IMG/VR virus record: IMGVR_UViG_2597489870_000006
Span: 1-57,127 of that record
Reading direction: 5' to 3' (one strand)
Length of the DNA: 57,127 nt
Source of the DNA: a virus
Lineage: Duplodnaviria; Heunggongvirae; Uroviricota; Caudoviricetes
Both the position numbers and the translations under genes were made by a program. Shown here piece by piece: positions 11,575 to 43,024 of the stretch; within the stretch, counting starts at the first letter, position 1, and each line of letters starts with the position of its first letter. Under the pieces are notes generated by a model. That model saw only the letters and a program-made list of their open reading frames with translations. It did no database searches and was not told the DNA's origin.

Positions 11575-11650
11575 GCAGGTTACGCTACCACCGGAAACGC
11601 CAATTTCGCTGGTGGTAGCCCAGACAGGGTTGGCGTAACCGGCTCTGAAG
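11575..11650 (-). ncRNA. Structured RNA leader (nested inverted repeats pairing with the downstream SD)
   Basis: On the minus strand CTTCAGA...GGTTACGC...CTACCACC...GGTGGTAG...GCGTAACC...TCTGAAG-GAGG; the outer arm includes the SD of the 11554 gene. Confidence 0.35.
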
Positions 11651-12216
11651 GATACCGGCGCTTCCGAAGAAGCCCCCGCCTGAGCCACCATTGATTGACA
11701 AAGGCGCTGGATTATACACCAACGCCCAAAAAATGGGTGAGTCAGACCTACGACATAAAAAAAGACGCTCGGCGCGTCATATGTCGCCTTCAGAATTTTC
11801 AGGACGCCAATCCCGGCACCCGTTTTATGAGGTGCCTTATAACCATAAACCGTGTTGCCGCATAACGGCAAGCTCTTTTTTATGGACTCCGAAAACTCAC
11901 TATTGGAAGAACCAGAAGCACAGTACATCGCGCTCATTTCGTTAACGTCACGCGCGTGGACGAAGGTTTTTGTGGAGTCACTACACGAGCAGAGAAAGCC
12001 ATCTACGACCAGAAATTCTCTGGCATAGCCGCTGACCTTCTCAACGCTAACACCATCGACCGTAATTTCTGACATAGTTAAGGCATCCGCTCCTACCACC
12101 AGCAAATGATAAACTTTGCTTGTATCTGCTGTATTAATGTCTGACTTTGCTGTCATATTGCTGGATTTTGGCGACATACCAGCCAGTGAAAATATCTTCT
12201 TCTGGGCGGTTAGCAT
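11650..12216 (-). CDS. hypothetical protein, N-terminal part of the 355-aa track ORF (true 3' end uncertain)
   Basis: Protein-like N-terminal about 190 aa; the frame stays open through the structured region and the two SD-bearing small genes, so it is probably not one gene. Confidence 0.3.
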
Positions 12217-12392
12217 TTGTTAACCTCCGCGAACTCCTTCATGAAACGTGCCAGCGGTTGTACGCATGGCGATTGATACCCGTCGCGATAAAACGTCACT
12301 CGGTTGTGAGACACGCTTTCGACAGTAACGAGTGCTCCGTGGGCATCTTTGTAGCGTTTTTGAGGTTGTGGTGTTCCTGTCGGCTTAAACAT
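12210..12392 (-). CDS. small hypothetical protein (60 aa)
   Basis: ATG at 12392 overlapping the antirepressor stop. Confidence 0.35.
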   Translation of the reverse strand: MFKPTGTPQPQKRYKDAHGALVTVESVSHNRVTFYRDGYQSPCVQPLARFMKEFAEVNKC

Positions 12393-13218
12393 GGACCGCC
12401 TCCAGACGCTTGGCGAGCCAGCGTTGCGACAGGCGGGTGAGTTCTCCTTTGCGCTGCTCATATTCCATGCCCATATCAATTAACGTGATATTGGTGCTTT
12501 CGAGATATGAGAGGTGCTCAAGCTGTTCTGCGTTCATATGGTCGCGAGGTTCGCCAGAATAGCCATTTATCCGCGCCCACTGCTTAGCAGTTAGCCCACC
12601 AAGAACGATACGAGAAATCATATTGCTCTCGTTTGTGTAGTGGTGTTGCTGCGTCGTTTTCCCCTGCTCGGCACGGGCCATATTCAGCGCATCGCACATT
12701 GGCTTAAAGTTGTTTGCGGCACTAATACGGGCTTTTAGCTGGCGACGATAGCGGGCGGCGATTTCAGGCACGCTACGCTGTAATTCTTCCTCGCACTGGA
12801 TGAAATAACGACGGATAGCGCGACCCTGATCATTGCGTTCGATCATTGCCAGTTCTTTCGCCATTCCGACACTTAACAGATAGTCTTTGCCGGGTCTGCC
12901 AGAGTGCTTAATCTTGCTGTAAGCCGCGCCATTCGGGCTTTTCCCCAAATTTGGGGAAATTGTTTTATGGACTGAGTAATCGTGCCCAATGGTGAAGTCA
13001 TATTCAGAGATGCGATCAGTGATCCATGTAGAGAAGTCTTTTCCCACGCCCAACGCTTTGTGTAACGCTTTTGCGCTAACAATATTGGTTTCACGCCCAC
13101 CGATATGACCAGGAATAACCGGGACAATTGCGGCAAATTCATTACCGTTAATTGTGCCCAGAGAGGCGTTCAGATGAGGGGCAGCCTCAGAAATTAATCT
13201 GCTTTTTTCGATGTTCAT
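12385..13218 (-). CDS. phage antirepressor (AntA/KilAC-like, 277 aa)
   Basis: N-terminal SAKALHKALGVGKDFSTWITDRISEYDF resembles the AntA/Ant N-terminal domain. Confidence 0.6.
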   Translation of the reverse strand: MNIEKSRLISEAAPHLNASLGTINGNEFAAIVPVIPGHIGGRETNIVSAKALHKALGVGKDFSTWITDRISEYDFTIGHDYSVHKTISPNLGKSPNGAAYSKIKHSGRPGKDYLLSVGMAKELAMIERNDQGRAIRRYFIQCEEELQRSVPEIAARYRRQLKARISAANNFKPMCDALNMARAEQGKTTQQHHYTNESNMISRIVLGGLTAKQWARINGYSGEPRDHMNAEQLEHLSYLESTNITLIDMGMEYEQRKGELTRLSQRWLAKRLEAVHV

Positions 13219-14516: not shown

Positions 14517-15731
14517 TCATGCGTGTTTTTCAAACACCATATGCACCACATTTCCGCCATGCTCGAGAGAATCCATATAGTCGGCATACCATTGAAGCAT
14601 CTCCCGCCTTCCATCCAGATATTGCGCATGGTTGTATGTGCCACGAATTGAGTTCTTATCAACGTGAGCGAGCTGCGTTTCTATCCACGCGGTGTTATAG
14701 CCCTGCTCATGCAAAATCGTACTCATAGTGTGCCGGAACCCATGACCAGTTACACGTCCAGCGTAGCCAATGCGCTTAAACACTTGGTTTATGCTGGCCT
14801 CACTCATTGTTTTCCTTGGATCATTGCGCCCGGGAAACATAAGAGGGTAATTGCCTGTTATTTCTCTAATCTTCCCAATAAGCGAAAGAGCCTGCTCAGA
14901 CAATGGCACAATATGAGGCCGCCGCATTTTCATACGTGAAGCGGGTATCTCCCAGAGAGCCTTGTTGAAATCAATTTCATCCCATAATGCGCCACGTAGT
15001 TCGCCAGTCCGCAAGCCTGTGATAATCAGTAGACGAGCCGCCATAACAACCAATGCGCTTCCTGAGTAACTGGACAATGCCTTGAAAAAATCAGGTAATT
15101 CTTTGGCTGTAAGGAAAGGGTAATGATTAGATTCATGGCCTTGCATCGCGCTAGTAAGGTCTGGTGCAGGGTTATACTCTGCGCGACCAGTGACTATTGC
15201 ATAGCGGAAAACTTCCCCGCACCGCTGCCTCACTTTTTTGGCTTTTTCTGTAGCACCGCGCCCCTCGATGCGCCGCAGCACATTCAGAAGTTCAAGTGGT
15301 TTGATTTCGGCGATTGGTTTTTTGCCAATGTAAGGGAACACATCTTTGTTGAAGGCTTCGAGGATGTCTGAAGCATAACCAGCAGACCATTTTTTTAATT
15401 TGCTGCTGTGCCACTCAAGGGCAATATCTTTGAAGGTGTTGTTTAACTGCGTTTCCCGGGCAATCTTTTCCTCTCGTTTCGCTTCCATCGGATCGATACC
15501 ACCAGCGATACCTCTTTTCGCATCTTCACGTTTTGCCCGAGCATCGGCTAGAGTAACCTCAGGATACACACCTAGTGCCAATAGCTTCTCTTTACCAGCC
15601 ACACGATATTTAAGTCGCCAGTATTTACCTCCATTAGGTTTTACCAAGAGATACAAACCGCCACCATCGGCCAGCTTGTAAGCCTTCTCTTTTGGCTTGG
15701 CTGTGTCTATTTGACGGGCATTGAGTTTCAC
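14517..15731 (-). CDS. int: tyrosine integrase, P4 family (404 aa)
   Basis: P4-type integrase N-terminus MKLNARQIDTAKPKEKAYKLADGGGLYLLVKP and C-terminal R...HGFRHT...Y catalytic region; GTG start with SD GGAGG; next to att core. Confidence 0.9.
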   Translation of the reverse strand: MKLNARQIDTAKPKEKAYKLADGGGLYLLVKPNGGKYWRLKYRVAGKEKLLALGVYPEVTLADARAKREDAKRGIAGGIDPMEAKREEKIARETQLNNTFKDIALEWHSSKLKKWSAGYASDILEAFNKDVFPYIGKKPIAEIKPLELLNVLRRIEGRGATEKAKKVRQRCGEVFRYAIVTGRAEYNPAPDLTSAMQGHESNHYPFLTAKELPDFFKALSSYSGSALVVMAARLLIITGLRTGELRGALWDEIDFNKALWEIPASRMKMRRPHIVPLSEQALSLIGKIREITGNYPLMFPGRNDPRKTMSEASINQVFKRIGYAGRVTGHGFRHTMSTILHEQGYNTAWIETQLAHVDKNSIRGTYNHAQYLDGRREMLQWYADYMDSLEHGGNVVHMVFEKHA

Positions 15732-16162: not shown

Positions 16163-16390
16163 TTGTACTCCTCATGGGCAATCAGCAGTCCTCAGAGTAA
16201 TGGAATGGCAGAAAGGTTCGTGAAAACGATGAAGGAAGACTACATCGCGTTCATGCCGAAACCGAATGTAAGAACGGCATTGCATAATCTTGCAGTGGCG
16301 ATCGAACATTACAATGAAAACCATCCGCACAGTGCGTTGGGTTATCGCTCTCTGCGAGAATATCGACGTCAGCGGGTAACGTTAACTTAA
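16163..16390 (+). pseudogene. IS3-family (IS2-like) transposase C-terminal fragment
   Basis: [20 protein letters not shown]...[14 protein letters not shown] resembles the C-terminus of IS2-type OrfB; only about 75 aa, no upstream catalytic region. Confidence 0.6.
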
Positions 16391-16431: not shown

Positions 16432-17184
16432 TCAGATTCCCTGGTGAGTAAGAATTTTACTTTCTGAACTCCTCTGAGAGTATTGACTTGGAGAAACACC
16501 AAAATAACGTCTAAATACATAAGTAAAGTATGAGACACTGGCATAACCACAGACCTTAGCTACTTTACTAATAGGATAACAACGAGTGCTGAGTAAATAT
16601 TCAGCCATTTGCATCCTCTCATCAAGTATGATCTTACTGAATGATACCCCCTCTTCTTTCAATTTCCTCTTTAGTAAACTTTCGCTGAGATATAATCTTG
16701 ATGATATATCCTTAAGACGCCATGGTGCAGATAAATCCGTATGAATAATCGTTTTAACTTTAGCCCCTGTGCTTTTCAAACATCCAAACAGAAATACTCC
16801 AAATTGTTTTTCAGAAGAAAATGCAGAGAGACATGTAAAAGCAATAGACTCATCAAAAATTTCTATGTATTCAGCACAGTGATTAGCCCAACTAATTAAT
16901 CCTTTAATTAAACTGAAGTCAGCAAAGTTTATTTTTAAATAAGATGGATATTCCCTACAATCAGAAATATCCCTTAAGTTATTAGCTTTCAAATAGCGAC
17001 TAATAAACTCAGCGCCAAAATCCGCCACTATCACTCTTTCAGGATATGTCAGGAAAAAATCTCTAGAGCTAGAGTCGACAAGTACAGATGAACCTCTCTC
17101 CAGAAACACAATCTCTTTTCCTAAATAAACATCAAAGGACTCCAAAATCAATATAACTGAACATGTAGTTGCCATATCATCCAC
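16432..17184 (-). CDS. AraC-family transcriptional regulator (250 aa, AT-rich)
   Basis: C-terminal AraC-type HTH region ...ISKVAKVCGYASVSYFTYVFRRYFGVSPSQY; low GC, flanked by AT-rich DNA. Confidence 0.75.
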   Translation of the reverse strand: MDDMATTCSVILILESFDVYLGKEIVFLERGSSVLVDSSSRDFFLTYPERVIVADFGAEFISRYLKANNLRDISDCREYPSYLKINFADFSLIKGLISWANHCAEYIEIFDESIAFTCLSAFSSEKQFGVFLFGCLKSTGAKVKTIIHTDLSAPWRLKDISSRLYLSESLLKRKLKEEGVSFSKIILDERMQMAEYLLSTRCYPISKVAKVCGYASVSYFTYVFRRYFGVSPSQYSQRSSESKILTHQGI

Positions 17185-17904: not shown

Positions 17905-18774
<870 letters not shown>

Positions 18775-18831
18775 GTCTTTAAGTGATAAGCATAAACCGC
18801 AGCACGATCTTGCATACGACGTGCTACGGTT

Positions 18832-19392
18832 TCATTTATCTCCGACCGGAAACTTCTTATACAGTGTCGATATACCAACATCATAGATGATCGCCACCTT
18901 CTGGCGAGGAACGCCTGATGCAATTAATCGCCCGGCCTGCGCCCATTGTTCTGGTGTAAGTTTGGGACGACGTCCACCAATTCGTCCCTGTGCGCGAGCA
19001 GCTTCCAGTCCAGCTTTTGTTCGTTCAACAATCAGTTCTCGTTCCATTTCAGCCAGGGCACCCATCACATGAAAGAAAAAACGCCCCATCGGTGTGCTGG
19101 TATCAATAGCATCCGTCAGGCTGCGAAAATTAACGCCACGTTCGCGCAACTCCTCAACCAGAATGACCAGATGCCGCATACTACGCCCCAGCCGATCCAG
19201 CTTCCAGACAACCAGAGTGTCACCTGCCGATAATGTCCTGAGCAGTTTTTTCAGTCCCGGCCTTTCGGACTTTGTACCGCTTATCTTGTCTTCAAAAATC
19301 AGCTCGCATCCTGCACAGTTCAGTGCATTACGTTGCAAATCGGTGTTCTGGTCATTTGTTGACACGCGTACATAGCCAATAAGCATGATCAT
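18832..19392 (-). CDS. serine DNA invertase, Gin/Pin/Hin family (186 aa)
   Basis: N-terminal resolvase motif IGYVRVSTNDQNTDLQ with catalytic Ser, C-terminal HTH; next to the invertible segment. Confidence 0.9.
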   Translation of the reverse strand: MIMLIGYVRVSTNDQNTDLQRNALNCAGCELIFEDKISGTKSERPGLKKLLRTLSAGDTLVVWKLDRLGRSMRHLVILVEELRERGVNFRSLTDAIDTSTPMGRFFFHVMGALAEMERELIVERTKAGLEAARAQGRIGGRRPKLTPEQWAQAGRLIASGVPRQKVAIIYDVGISTLYKKFPVGDK

Positions 19393-19413
19393 CCCCCTGA
19401 ATAAAAACCGGAG

Positions 19414-19806
19414 ATGATGCCAGTTAGCTGTTACCTCTGCATTTTCTTAAACGTTGGTTTGGGAGAAGCGGCTAAAAGGAATGTAGGGACAGGGGCGAAT
19501 CAGATACCTGATATGGGTAGCTTCACGCTTTCTGTTTCAGGTACTGGATATCAAAAATTACCATCAGGTTTTATTCTTCAGTGGGGCTCAATCGGCGCAC
19601 CAGGCATTGCACAGGATGTAGTAACCCATTTCCCGATTGCATTTCCAAACAGATGTCTGCGTGTTTTGGTCTCACAAGACTACACACCAGATAGCGGGGC
19701 TGTTGGTTATATTGCCTGTGCAGGTTTTAGTCCCGACCCGGTTAAATTTATATCCAGAGCCAGTACTCCTGGCCTCGGCGCTTCATTTTTAGCGTTAGGC
19801 TGTTAA
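19414..19806 (+). CDS. alternative tail-fibre C-terminal segment, promoterless, inside the invertible segment
   Basis: Reading frame passes through the crossover site with the same ...LGLGE... junction as the expressed tail-fibre gene. Confidence 0.6.
19444..19467. promoter_or_regulatory. gix/hix-like inversion crossover site (left)
   Basis: ttcttaaacgttggtttgggagaa is an inverted copy of the 21367-21390 site (14 contiguous identical bases). Confidence 0.7.
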
Positions 19807-19827
19807 TTTAGCTATATGGAGTGAAAA

Positions 19828-20268
19828 ATGAATTACATATATTCCGCGACTACAAACTCTTTCTATCCGCTGGAGATGAAAGAGGATTACACTCAAGCTG
19901 ACTCATGGCCAGATGATGCTGTTGAAGTTGATGAGCAAGTGTATATTGAGTTTTCCGGATTACCGCCGAAAGGAAAAATCCGTATCGCTGGAGAAAATGG
20001 TTTTCCTGCATGGTCTGAAATTCCACCACCAACACATGAGGAACAGATTGCTGCAGCCGAACAGGAAAAGCAGCAACTGATTAATCAGGCCAACGATTAT
20101 ATGAACAGTAAACAATGGCCTGGTAAAGCGGCTATTGGTCGTCTGAAAGGTGAGGAACTGGCGCAATATAATTTGTGGCTGGATTATCTGGACGCACTGG
20201 AACTGGTCGATACTTCCGGTGCGCCAGATATTGAATGGCCTACGCCTCCGGCAGTTCAGGCCAGATGA
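19828..20268 (+). CDS. tail fibre assembly protein (alternative copy, 146 aa)
   Basis: Tfa-like sequence following the alternative fibre segment. Confidence 0.7.
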   Translation: MNYIYSATTNSFYPLEMKEDYTQADSWPDDAVEVDEQVYIEFSGLPPKGKIRIAGENGFPAWSEIPPPTHEEQIAAAEQEKQQLINQANDYMNSKQWPGKAAIGRLKGEELAQYNLWLDYLDALELVDTSGAPDIEWPTPPAVQAR

Positions 20269-20845
20269 CATCCGGCGCGGTGCTGGTATCTGTTGCCGTC
20301 ACCGCGTCAATGTAATCCAGCGCAGCGTTAAGTCGGGCGGTTTCTGCCTGCGTCAGATTCCGTCCGGCCTGCAATTTCAGCTGAATCAGACTAATGGAAG
20401 CCATTGCAGTATCAATCAGTGACTGACGCTGTGCTTCTGCCGCGCCTACTGCGGCGCTATGCTGTGCCACAGTATCTGTTACCCATTTCTCACCATCCCA
20501 TTCATCGTATGGCGTTAACGGGGCGATAGTGGTTGTATTTTCAGGATAATCACCCGGAGCTGTGATTTCTTTCGATTCTCCTGTTTCGGTGCTATAGATG
20601 ATTTCACCGCGATGGTCTGGCACATACTCCCATGAGTTTAAATCTGCCGAACGGCAGATTGCATAACCAGCCTTATGTGTGCCAGGAGCATCTAAACAGG
20701 AATATGCAGGGATACCGACACCCACAGCAAGATATTCAGTTGATGCAGAAATATACTCCCGTGTCTCACTGTCATAGTTATAAACGGTAATCTCTCCTGC
20801 CTTTGTGGCAATAAATTTACTATTCAAGATGGCGTTATACATCAT
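20240..20845 (-). CDS. tail fibre assembly protein (expressed orientation, 201 aa)
   Basis: Tfa-like C-terminus, directly downstream of the tail fibre gene. Confidence 0.7.
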
Positions 20846-21669
20846 GCAGCCCTCACAATGTAATTAAATGAAATATTACGTGGGCGTGTCTCTGCTGCAC
20901 CGACAATACTGGTACTCAACCCCGTCGCTGTTCGTTTGTTATTTTTATTTCCTTCAATCAGACAGTTGTAATCATCATTACCAATTAACGAATTAGTGGC
21001 ATCAATACCGTCCGGGGACAAGGCATTAGTTGTAGAACTTAAAGTCAGCATCTCGTCTGAACTTGGAAGATTTTTTAATGGTATTTCATTGCGAGAAATA
21101 CCCGCGTAAAAAAAGGACTCATGCCTGTGCGCTTCAAAAGAGTCATCCTGAAGACTTAGCAAGGCACGTCCCGCATCCACACCACGCCCGTCATCCCAGC
21201 CACGAATAAACTCACCACGTAAATCAGGCAATTTATTTGTCGGATAAGCCTTTGCCAGTTCCGGGTATTCTTCAGCAGAAAAAGCGGCACCGTTGCATTT
21301 CAGCCAGCCTGTTGGCGGAGTGGCGGAAGGCCACGGAACAGGCACGCCAACGGGTAATGCCGAACCTTCTCCCAAACCAAGGTTTTCGAGAGCTGTTTTC
21401 ACCGTGCCATCCGATTTGATATCGCCAAACGGATTCTTGCGGCTTAACAGCAGCGCACGAAGCGCGGTAAGCAACTGGTCGTGCCGCGCCTTCTCCAGGC
21501 TGGCACCGGATGCCTCCACCACGCTGCAGAGTTCTTCCTGCAACATATCAAAGTAGTCATCATCCAGATCGGTGGCAGACGTGCCAGTCTGGGGGTTACC
21601 ACGGGTAAAACCGTTCTTACCCGCGCCGAACTTATCCTTCTGCGCGGTTTTCGTGTCTATACGATGCAT
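20842..21669 (-). CDS. tail fibre protein (275 aa; N-terminal about 96 aa constant, remainder inside the invertible segment)
   Basis: Position after baseplate genes; crossover site lies at codons for ENLGLGEGS. Confidence 0.75.
21367..21390. promoter_or_regulatory. gix/hix-like inversion crossover site (right, inside the tail fibre gene)
   Basis: ttctcccaaaccaaggttttcgag, inverted partner of 19444-19467. Confidence 0.7.
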
Positions 21670-21672
21670 GGA

Positions 21673-22257
21673 TTACTCCGGATATTTAAAAATTACGTAG
21701 GTATGCGACGGGCAGAGTTTGTTAAGCACACACTCGACAACGGTGTCACCCCAGATACGCAGTGCGGAATCACAGGGATCGCCACATGTCATCCAGGTGG
21801 TGTTGGTGGTGGTTGGCATGTTGACCTGCCAGTAATACCGCCATTCCGGCGCATTCACCGCGTCAGTACAGGCCGATGAGCAGGTGAACGTGCTTTTGTC
21901 GTATCGCGTGATGGTGGCATCTGGTCTGCCCAGGGCAGCAAGCTGTGCAAGATAAAAATCCTCGTTGATGCCGCCCGCCAGGTTAACCTTCGCATCCAGC
22001 CGTTGCTGACGCTGGCGAAGGGTCTGCGTTCCCGCCGGAATACATTCATCCGGCAGACCGCACAGACGCTCCCAGCGGTTTATCAGTTCAGTGGTGGTGC
22101 GCGGATCCAGCTCCCGCATCAGGGCATCCGCACGCTGATGAACACGGGTTAATGACGGTGCCGCACCGGCAATCGCCGGATCGCTGGCTGACCACGCCGG
22201 ACCGGGCGGCAACAGTGCCGATAACAGGCGGATGTAATCATCGTTTGTCACGTCCAT
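21673..22257 (-). CDS. tail protein (Mu gp48-like, 194 aa)
   Basis: Position between baseplate J-like and tail fibre genes. Confidence 0.6.
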
Positions 22258-41692: not shown

Positions 41693-43024
41693 ATGTTAGA
41701 TACACTATCTTTCACTGAACGTGACGAGTTCCAACGCAGAAGCATCGCTGAAAATATCATCAAGTTGCTAAAACCAGAGGCAGACATTTCACCACTGGTA
41801 ATAGACGGCGCATGGGGAACAGGGAAAACAGAATTTAGTATCAAACTGAAAAATCTCATTATTGAGCAAGAAACTGAATCTAAAGTTGTTTATATTGATG
41901 CCTTTAAAGGGGATCATGCAGAATCTCCATTACTTCTCATAACCTCTGCAATTGCCAGCATTTTACCTGAGGAAGAAAAACAACACTTCATTAAGAGATC
42001 TCTTCCTGCAATTCGCTTTGGTTTAAAAACGGTACTAAAAGCTGGTGCAGGTTGGTTTTTACGACAGGAGGCTAGTGAAGTTTCCGAAGAATTCCAAGAT
42101 GCGATGAAGAAAGCAAGCAATGCAGCAATAGATGGGACTATTGAAAATTTGCTTGAAGACCATATGGAATCAGAGAAAAACATAAATTCACTTAAATCTT
42201 GCATCGAAAGCATTTCAGAAAGTCAAAAGATAGTAATTATAATTGATGAATTAGACCGATGTAAGCCGAGTTTTTCAACAAATGTCATTGAAACAATAAA
42301 ACACATTTTTGACATCAATAATGTCTTTTTTATTTTAGTTACAAACACAGAACAATTAAAAGCATCGATAAATCATATTTATGGTTATAGTATTAACTCA
42401 CAAAAGTATCTTGACAAGTTTATAAAATATACCATCACGCTTCCAGACACATGTTTAATAAATGGTCACGTCGTATGTAAAACATCTGTTATATATTGGA
42501 ATTACCTTGTAGACAAGACAAAATCATTAAATGAAATTAATAGTTTATCTGGTAGATTTATCCGTGATTTAATTCAACGAACCAACTTATCCTTACGTGA
42601 AACACAAACTTTTTCACGCAATCTTAACATTTTTCAACTATTAAACGACGATGAGTACAAAAGCAGTGATCCTTTAATAAATAAGATCTTTGTCGTAGCT
42701 GTCTTCATACATTGCTTTGGTGACAAGGAAAAACTAAAACAAGAAATTACCGCAGAATCTATATCTCATTTAGCAGATCTGCTTAACATAAAAGAAATAC
42801 CTTATTCTTATGAGAGAAGATCGCAAATTCCTGAAATATCTATTGTATTCTTCGGAATAATTAAAGACAGTATTACTCTTAATGAGCGATTTGCCCCTAA
42901 AAGTGATGAAGAACTTAAAAAATTCACCAATGTTTATACTGATTATGAACACCTAAATTTTTGGAGTACTACACCCAGAGAGTTATTGATAAAATATATT
43001 AATCAAATGTCATTCATCCAGTAA
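41693..43024 (+). CDS. KAP-family P-loop NTPase (443 aa), AT-rich, opposite strand to flanking phage genes
   Basis: Walker A VIDGAWGTGKTEFS and KAP-type Walker B VIIIDELDRCKP; low GC; convergent with Q. Confidence 0.8.
   Translation: MLDTLSFTERDEFQRRSIAENIIKLLKPEADISPLVIDGAWGTGKTEFSIKLKNLIIEQETESKVVYIDAFKGDHAESPLLLITSAIASILPEEEKQHFIKRSLPAIRFGLKTVLKAGAGWFLRQEASEVSEEFQDAMKKASNAAIDGTIENLLEDHMESEKNINSLKSCIESISESQKIVIIIDELDRCKPSFSTNVIETIKHIFDINNVFFILVTNTEQLKASINHIYGYSINSQKYLDKFIKYTITLPDTCLINGHVVCKTSVIYWNYLVDKTKSLNEINSLSGRFIRDLIQRTNLSLRETQTFSRNLNIFQLLNDDEYKSSDPLINKIFVVAVFIHCFGDKEKLKQEITAESISHLADLLNIKEIPYSYERRSQIPEISIVFFGIIKDSITLNERFAPKSDEELKKFTNVYTDYEHLNFWSTTPRELLIKYINQMSFIQ

Follow-up and report, generated by a model that had tools for sequence, protein, structure and literature searches.

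The stretch of DNA analysed here, which we call the window, is the 57,127-bp IMG/VR virus record IMGVR_UViG_2597489870_000006, and our subject within it is a tail fibre gene whose alternative C-terminal parts lie on a putative invertible segment next to pin, a gene for a serine DNA invertase. The 3.1-kb region around the segment is a 100% match to NC_017633.1 of the enterotoxigenic Escherichia coli (ETEC) strain H10407, in which a window position x corresponds to position 353071 minus x. A preliminary description made from the letters of the window had proposed that the segment is a host-range switch of the Gin/Pin type. The features of the locus and of its surroundings are collected in Table 1.

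Table 1. Features of the invertible segment and its surroundings, in window coordinates. ORF, open reading frame; pix, crossover site; IS, insertion sequence.
Feature	Position	Strand	Details
pin (pinE), serine DNA invertase	18832-19386	-	184 aa; RefSeq WP_000904981.1
Candidate Fis-dependent recombinational enhancer (pin nt 19-90)	19297-19368	-	By position only
Pin-proximal pix	19442-19467		TTTTCTTAAACG TT GGTTTGGGAGAA; 12-2-12, central TT at 19454-19455
gp53-like fibre C-terminal cassette, now unfused	19454-19806	+	As ORF 19414-19806: 13-codon leader, 130 aa; Pfam Gp53-like_C 4e-15
Tfa chaperone of gp53-like cassette	19828-20268	+	146 aa; Pfam Caudo_TAP 1e-38
Tfa chaperone tfaE of collar cassette	20240-20842 (ORF to 20845)	-	200 aa; Pfam Caudo_TAP 4e-31; RefSeq tfaE
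Collar fibre C-terminal cassette (Collar domain and tip), now fused	20842-21380	-	Pfam Collar 1.6e-15
Constant-side pix	21367-21392		TTCTCCCAAACC AA GGTTTTCGAGAG; 12-2-12, central AA at 21379-21380
Constant N-terminal part of fibre gene, outside segment	21381-21669	-	96.3 codons up to central dinucleotide
LEM-3-like GIY-YIG gene	17950-18774	+	First gene beyond pin; full-length match to PADLOC PD-T4-3, 2e-140
AraC-family regulator	16432-17184	-	Between two mobile elements
IS integrase-core gene fragment	16163-16390	+	Between two mobile elements
antA/antB antirepressor gene	about 12385-13218		Beside C4 RNA and isrK
isrK	11758-11835	-	Rfam 67.8 bits
C4 antisense RNA	11608-11695	-	Rfam 79.9 bits
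KAP-family NTPase	41693-43024	+	Between Q antiterminator and holin; PADLOC PDC-S20 match 1e-176, PifA weaker
Prophage integrase	54551-55669	+	TTG start; abuts tRNA-Thr
tRNA-Thr	55687-55759	-	Next to proA; thrW site

The segment measures 1,927 bp (19454-21380). Its ORFs and their Pfam domains agree with the two alternative fibre C-termini and the two tfa genes in opposite orientations that had been described within it. As the window is given, the fibre gene runs through the constant part into the collar cassette and forms a single ORF of 275 aa (20842-21669, minus strand); in the Protein Data Bank, the cassette matches the sequences of the T4 gp37 tip (2XGF, 8e-18) and of short tail fibres. The 200-aa Tfa, 88% identical to TfaE of E. 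coli K-12, is at present co-oriented with the fibre gene. The gp53-like cassette faces the other way and has weak sequence matches in the same database to R-type pyocin fibres and AP22 gp53, and its 146-aa Tfa has 60% identity with K-12 TfaP in the C-terminal 102 residues. The tfa genes converge and have 29 bp in common at their 3' ends (20240-20268), as is also the case in the K-12 element e14, and their homologous C-terminal coding parts (20178-20195 and 20304-20321) form an 18-nt inverted repeat of 83% identity in the middle of the segment.

The constant N-terminal part, estimated earlier at about 96 aa, has that length when measured. It had been hinted that so short a constant part is unusual, but K-12 e14 has one of the same length, so the feature is not peculiar to the H10407 copy. 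Its product is 97% identical to the N-terminus of K-12 StfP (98/101 aa), and the gene comes after Mu gp48-like/YmfQ and Baseplate_J genes, which places it in the late tail operon. When the segment is inverted in silico at the central dinucleotide (19454-21380), the reading frame of the constant part continues into the gp53-like cassette without a break, and the result is a fibre of 213 aa with the 146-aa Tfa behind it. The preliminary description held that both fibre frames cross the site with the same LGLGE junction. That is true of the two fusion products but not of the present silent frame, which reads NVGLGE; inversion is needed for the motif to be common to both, since the constant part retains the first base of the Leu codon CTT.

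The silent cassette is variously annotated. The 13 leader codons of ORF 19414-19806 are the spacer between pin and the crossover site, and RefSeq gives this promoterless cassette an entry of its own, a 'gp53-like domain-containing protein' of 130 aa. In strains 2014C-3075 (locus L002, 5626-6086) and 2018-05-5CC (locus L003, 5630-6091), the unfused cassette beside pinE is recorded in RefSeq as an incomplete 'integrase' pseudogene, apparently a mis-annotation.

The inverted repeats claimed at 19444-19467 and 21367-21390 are present, and each belongs to a full crossover site of 26 bp (Table 1). A repeat search returned, as the top pair of the region, arms at 19449-19468 and 21366-21385 (20 nt, 95% complementary, 1897 nt apart). 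The two pix sites lie in inverted orientation with the same central dinucleotide, and when read in the same orientation they share a block of 15 identical nucleotides that includes it. Across the window, the 19-nt pattern TTCTCCCAAACCAAGGTTT with at most three mismatches matches only the two pix sites, against a chance expectation of 0.02 matches per shuffle on average and no shuffle with two matches among 100. The constant-side site is identical to the constant-side site of K-12 e14, and the pin-proximal site differs from its e14 counterpart, TTCTCCCAAACCAACGTTTATGAAAA, by one base at a position that is variable among half-sites. Both carry the AAACC-NN-GGTTT core, as do gix, cix and the K-12 pix sites when read from the Mu, P1 and K-12 records. 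Multiple inversion through extra cryptic sites, as in Min or shufflon systems, was also considered and rejected because the window holds only two crossover sites.

A serine invertase gene does adjoin the segment, as had been stated, though not with the proposed limits of 18832-19392. RefSeq sets the start of pin at 19386 (184 aa), and the in-frame ATG upstream of it at 19392 would give 186 aa. The product carries the Pfam domains Resolvase (9e-52) and HTH_7 (5e-13), and matches the Gin structure 3UJ3 over residues 1-181 (9.5e-94). Its sequence identity is 95% with K-12 PinE, 80% with P1 Cin and 77% with Mu Gin. When the four proteins are aligned, neither Ser9 nor the YVRVSTNDQ motif around it varies, so the invertase retains the catalytic serine on which the preliminary description had made its claim depend. 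Nucleotides 19-90 of pin align without gaps to the annotated enhancer of P1 cin (cin nt 19-90) with 56/72 identities, and Mu gin compared with cin over the same stretch gives 55/72. As this stretch is coding sequence, its conservation is not independent evidence of an enhancer.

If the segment inverts, both orientations should be found, and the opposite orientation of the same element is indeed present in public sequence. The predicted 213-aa flipped fibre is an exact match to WP_086261056.1, and the 192-aa ORF predicted to join the leader to the collar cassette is an exact match to WP_244591289.1. The in-silico inverted window is colinear with the Logan assembly of ERR3372734 (4708/4708 bases), with a 5.17-Mb contig of GCA_052953355.1 (7501 bp at 99.84%) that has the same GIY-YIG, AraC, IS and integrase neighbours as H10407, and with contigs from several ETEC16-1 metagenomes (99.2-99.6%). 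The window as given aligns with these sequences only in three pieces, of which the middle one is reversed. Sequence thus exists for both states of the element, and over the aligned 4.7 kb the two differ by no point change. Strains 2014C-3075 and 2018-05-5CC hold the same prophage (97.8%) with the segment flipped and an identical PinE protein accession, and the breakpoints of their alignments fall inside the repeat. The ETEC16-1 contigs (loci L009-L012), from several independent assemblies, all end 28 bp to the outside of the pin-proximal site (window position 19414); these breaks may be due either to a sample of mixed orientation or to pin-like genes that are repeated in the genome.

All four junctions also occur more widely. 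We searched 5,426 complete E. coli genomes with 500-bp junction queries, counting those covered to at least 80%. The junctions of the present orientation were found in 514 genomes (constant part with collar cassette) and 149 genomes (pin with gp53-like cassette), and those of the flipped orientation in 381 (constant part with gp53-like cassette) and 852 (pin with collar cassette). For the K-12 counterpart, inversion of the e14 P segment in cultures was seen by whole-genome sequencing and polymerase chain reaction (PCR) (Goldberg et al. 2014, PMC4272514, with reference to the e14 papers of Plasterk & van de Putte 1985 and Mehta et al. 2004). Kirigo et al. 2025 (PMC12529663) have since measured it by quantitative PCR (qPCR) and shown that PinE and PinQ drive it; of 562 database genomes, 33% had the inverted state.

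A Ser9 invertase and two inverted 26-bp sites bear out the assignment to the Gin/Pin type, of the Mu G, P1 C and e14 P kind. The architecture is likewise that of a host-range switch: alternative C-termini each with its own Tfa, a constant head outside the segment and an inversion product in frame. We are therefore highly confident that the segment is a real switch of an already known kind, a copy of the e14 P segment with variant alleles in what appears to be an intact prophage, and the switch in H10407 is probably active.

In the Gin/Hin paradigm, invertase dimers on the sites and a Fis-bound enhancer form an invertasome, in which serine cleavage at the 2-bp core is followed by subunit rotation. 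By the same route, Pin dimers would bind the two 26-bp pix sites, Fis on the presumed enhancer in the 5' end of pin would assemble the invertasome, and the Pin serine would cut both sites at the central 2-bp overhang; subunit rotation and strand exchange would leave the 1,927-bp segment flipped. Reading of the late tail operon would then pass from the fixed 96-codon fibre head to the cassette that happens to face it. The predicted outcome, as the segment now lies, is a 275-aa fibre with a collar/T4-like tip and then the 200-aa Tfa; after a flip it is a fibre of 213 aa whose tip is gp53/pyocin-like, and then the 146-aa Tfa. Since orientation sets which cassette the head meets, a lysogen population would release virions with two receptor specificities. 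The inversion rate in H10407, the dependence on Fis and the receptors bound by each tip are what we infer in this scheme.

Several points weigh against the scheme. Our scan of positions 18700-21800 for promoters and terminators gave no signal above shuffles, and read-through from the late operon is for this reason deduced from gene order. When the first 160 nt of each of pin, gin and cin were scanned with a degenerate Fis motif, no consistent pair of sites emerged; a Fis enhancer in the 5' end of pin is probable, as judged from position and the conservation of coding sequence only. Ongoing inversion in H10407 is read from near-identical assemblies and not from culture reads, and the production of virions by its prophage is presumed. 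The two tips do belong to different fold families, Collar/T4-like and gp53/pyocin-like, which is no more than suggestive of different host ranges.

A different role has been raised by work on K-12. The pin-proximal chimera StfE2, a short leader with a gp53-like C-terminus (125 aa), is reported to block the adsorption of T2 and some other phages (PMC12529663), and the H10407 switch might likewise serve mainly as a phase-variable anti-phage device of the lysogen and not as a host-range switch. ORF 19414-19806, a leader and a gp53-like domain in 130 aa, has the architecture of StfE2, and the H10407 reference orientation corresponds to the one that, by P-segment inversion, yields StfE2 in K-12. 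RefSeq annotates the ORF as a coding sequence, its exact protein is found on 40 contigs (its 90%-identity cluster has 205 member sequences), and the PD-T4-3 defence gene adjoins pin. However, the gp53-like domain is only 25% identical to its K-12 counterpart, no promoter stands out upstream of 19414, where a GGAG box abuts the ATG, and a PADLOC search with the product gave no match. The H10407 prophage also has a full set of virion genes, unlike e14, and the classical phage-side role therefore applies. We consider it unlikely that defence of the lysogen is the main function. The two roles are not mutually exclusive, and there is a slim chance that the H10407 switch doubles as a phase-variable superinfection-exclusion toggle for the lysogen.

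The anatomy could also be intact in a switch that has ceased to invert in H10407, for instance because pin is silent or the enhancer defective, in which case the flipped assemblies would record old events. Both complete H10407-type RefSeq assemblies (NC_017633.1 and CP007594.1, which have the same sequence) are in one orientation, and the enhancer is a candidate by position only. Yet no conserved residue is missing from the full-length Pin, whose protein accession recurs in other strains, and the pix sites match the functional e14 sites. The flipped segment also lies in DNA that is 100% identical over 4.7 kb, which would make the inversion very recent on the scale of point mutations. We regard a fossil switch as very unlikely. 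There is a negligible probability that faulty assembly, or RecA acting on the repeats, produced the flipped versions seen in databases: all ETEC16-1 contigs do end at 19414, where assemblers struggle, but the identical block common to the repeats has no more than 15 bases, which any read exceeds in length and which is much too short to be an efficient RecA substrate, each junction type occurs in hundreds of complete genomes, and inversion in K-12 was verified by PCR and qPCR, with a pinE pinQ mutant locked (PMC4272514, PMC12529663).

Our preferred reading, an invertible fibre segment that probably still operates as a switch, also fits the setting of the locus. The RefSeq annotation of NC_017633.1 shows a complete prophage, with int at tRNA-Thr at one end and pinE at the other. 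It begins with the tyrosine integrase beside tRNA-Thr and proA, continues through regulatory and replication genes, a Q antiterminator, lysis genes, terminase, portal and an HK97-type capsid, and passes by way of Mu-like sheath, tube and baseplate genes to the short tail fibre gene, the invertible segment and pinE. The prophage is very probably a full-length member of the e14 family, integrated at thrW, and the locus its P segment. This attachment site differs from that of e14 (icd) and is taken to be occupied by CP4-6 in K-12. No record in the phage collection that we searched covers at least 80% of the region; the best matches there are P2-like and Klebsiella and Salmonella phages, which have pin and tfa in common with it at 88-90%. 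We found no literature that joins H10407, the prophage and the invertase.

Several neighbouring genes may belong to phage defence. PD-T4-3, to which the product of the GIY-YIG gene beyond pin corresponds, is a single-gene anti-T4 defence. K-12 e14 has mcrA in the slot after pin where the H10407 prophage has this gene, and the pin-distal end of the prophage looks like a slot for defence genes. In the related prophages of 2014C-3075 and 2018-05-5CC, a retron Ec67 reverse transcriptase follows the PD-T4-3-type gene. The KAP-family NTPase gene is, from its matches and position, probably a moron or defence gene.

Past pinE, RefSeq places the GIY-YIG gene, the AraC regulator, the IS fragment and a second integrase-bearing element. 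The IS fragment and the AraC gene suggest a junction scar of tandem insertions at thrW. The C4 RNA and isrK, together with the antirepressor gene, make up an immunity module of the P1/P7 c4-ant type. This module belongs to the second element, which adjoins the prophage and contains a DUF5906 primase-like gene as well as a tyrosine integrase of its own (about 14517-15731).

Nothing in the mechanism, the sites or the invertase goes beyond the textbooks, and RefSeq already names pinE and tfaE. What the analysis documents is the H10407 thrW prophage as an intact relative of e14, with a P segment that looks live and carries different receptor-binding alleles. Orientation varies among the reference assemblies of the lineage and may confuse variant calling and annotation, and cassettes with no promoter of their own are entered as free-standing genes or, in some genomes, as 'integrase'. 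The locus also offers a natural second pair of alleles for testing the claim that P-segment products interfere with phage adsorption. If the lysogen does gain protection in this way, the tip allele, which has no more than 25% identity with its K-12 counterpart, might act against a different set of phages.

Among known inversion systems, e14 is the closest. It has the same order as H10407 (ymfQ, constant part of the fibre gene, pix, cassette, tfa, tfa, cassette, pix, pin), and at the DNA level the two are 98% identical from jayE through ymfQ to the constant fibre region and about 90% identical in pin. On these comparisons, the H10407 segment is a direct relative of the K-12 P segment. The elements that carry them differ, e14 being a 15-kb remnant at icd and the H10407 element a complete prophage of ~37 kb at thrW. 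The segment is 1,927 bp in H10407 compared with 1,797 bp reported for K-12 e14, and the reference orientation of H10407 is opposite to that of MG1655. The cassettes have diverged most: the variable parts of the gp53-like fibre and of K-12 StfP have an identity of only 25%, and the collar cassette is a 54% mosaic of K-12 StfE, in which the first 60 residues and the C-terminal end are conserved and the middle is different.

The Mu G segment and Gin follow the same plan. The start of gin, like that of pin, lies just outside one site, the sites are 26 bp with the AAACC-NN-GGTTT core, the S/U and S'/U' logic is shared, and the neighbouring baseplate genes are gp47/gp48-like. We detected no DNA similarity between the Mu G cassettes and those of H10407. 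Mu differs in having a constant part of about 170 codons, a G segment of about 3 kb and a GA/TC central dinucleotide where H10407 has AA/TT. The P1 C segment and Cin share the site architecture and the AA/TT centre with H10407. In P1, however, the 3' end of cin abuts cixL, an orientation opposite to that of pin relative to the segment, and the C segment (4.2 kb) and the constant part (about 450 codons) are longer. The H segment of Salmonella is acted on by Hin, an invertase of the same family at sites of the same type, but there it is a promoter that is flipped, in flagellar phase variation, and not coding cassettes.

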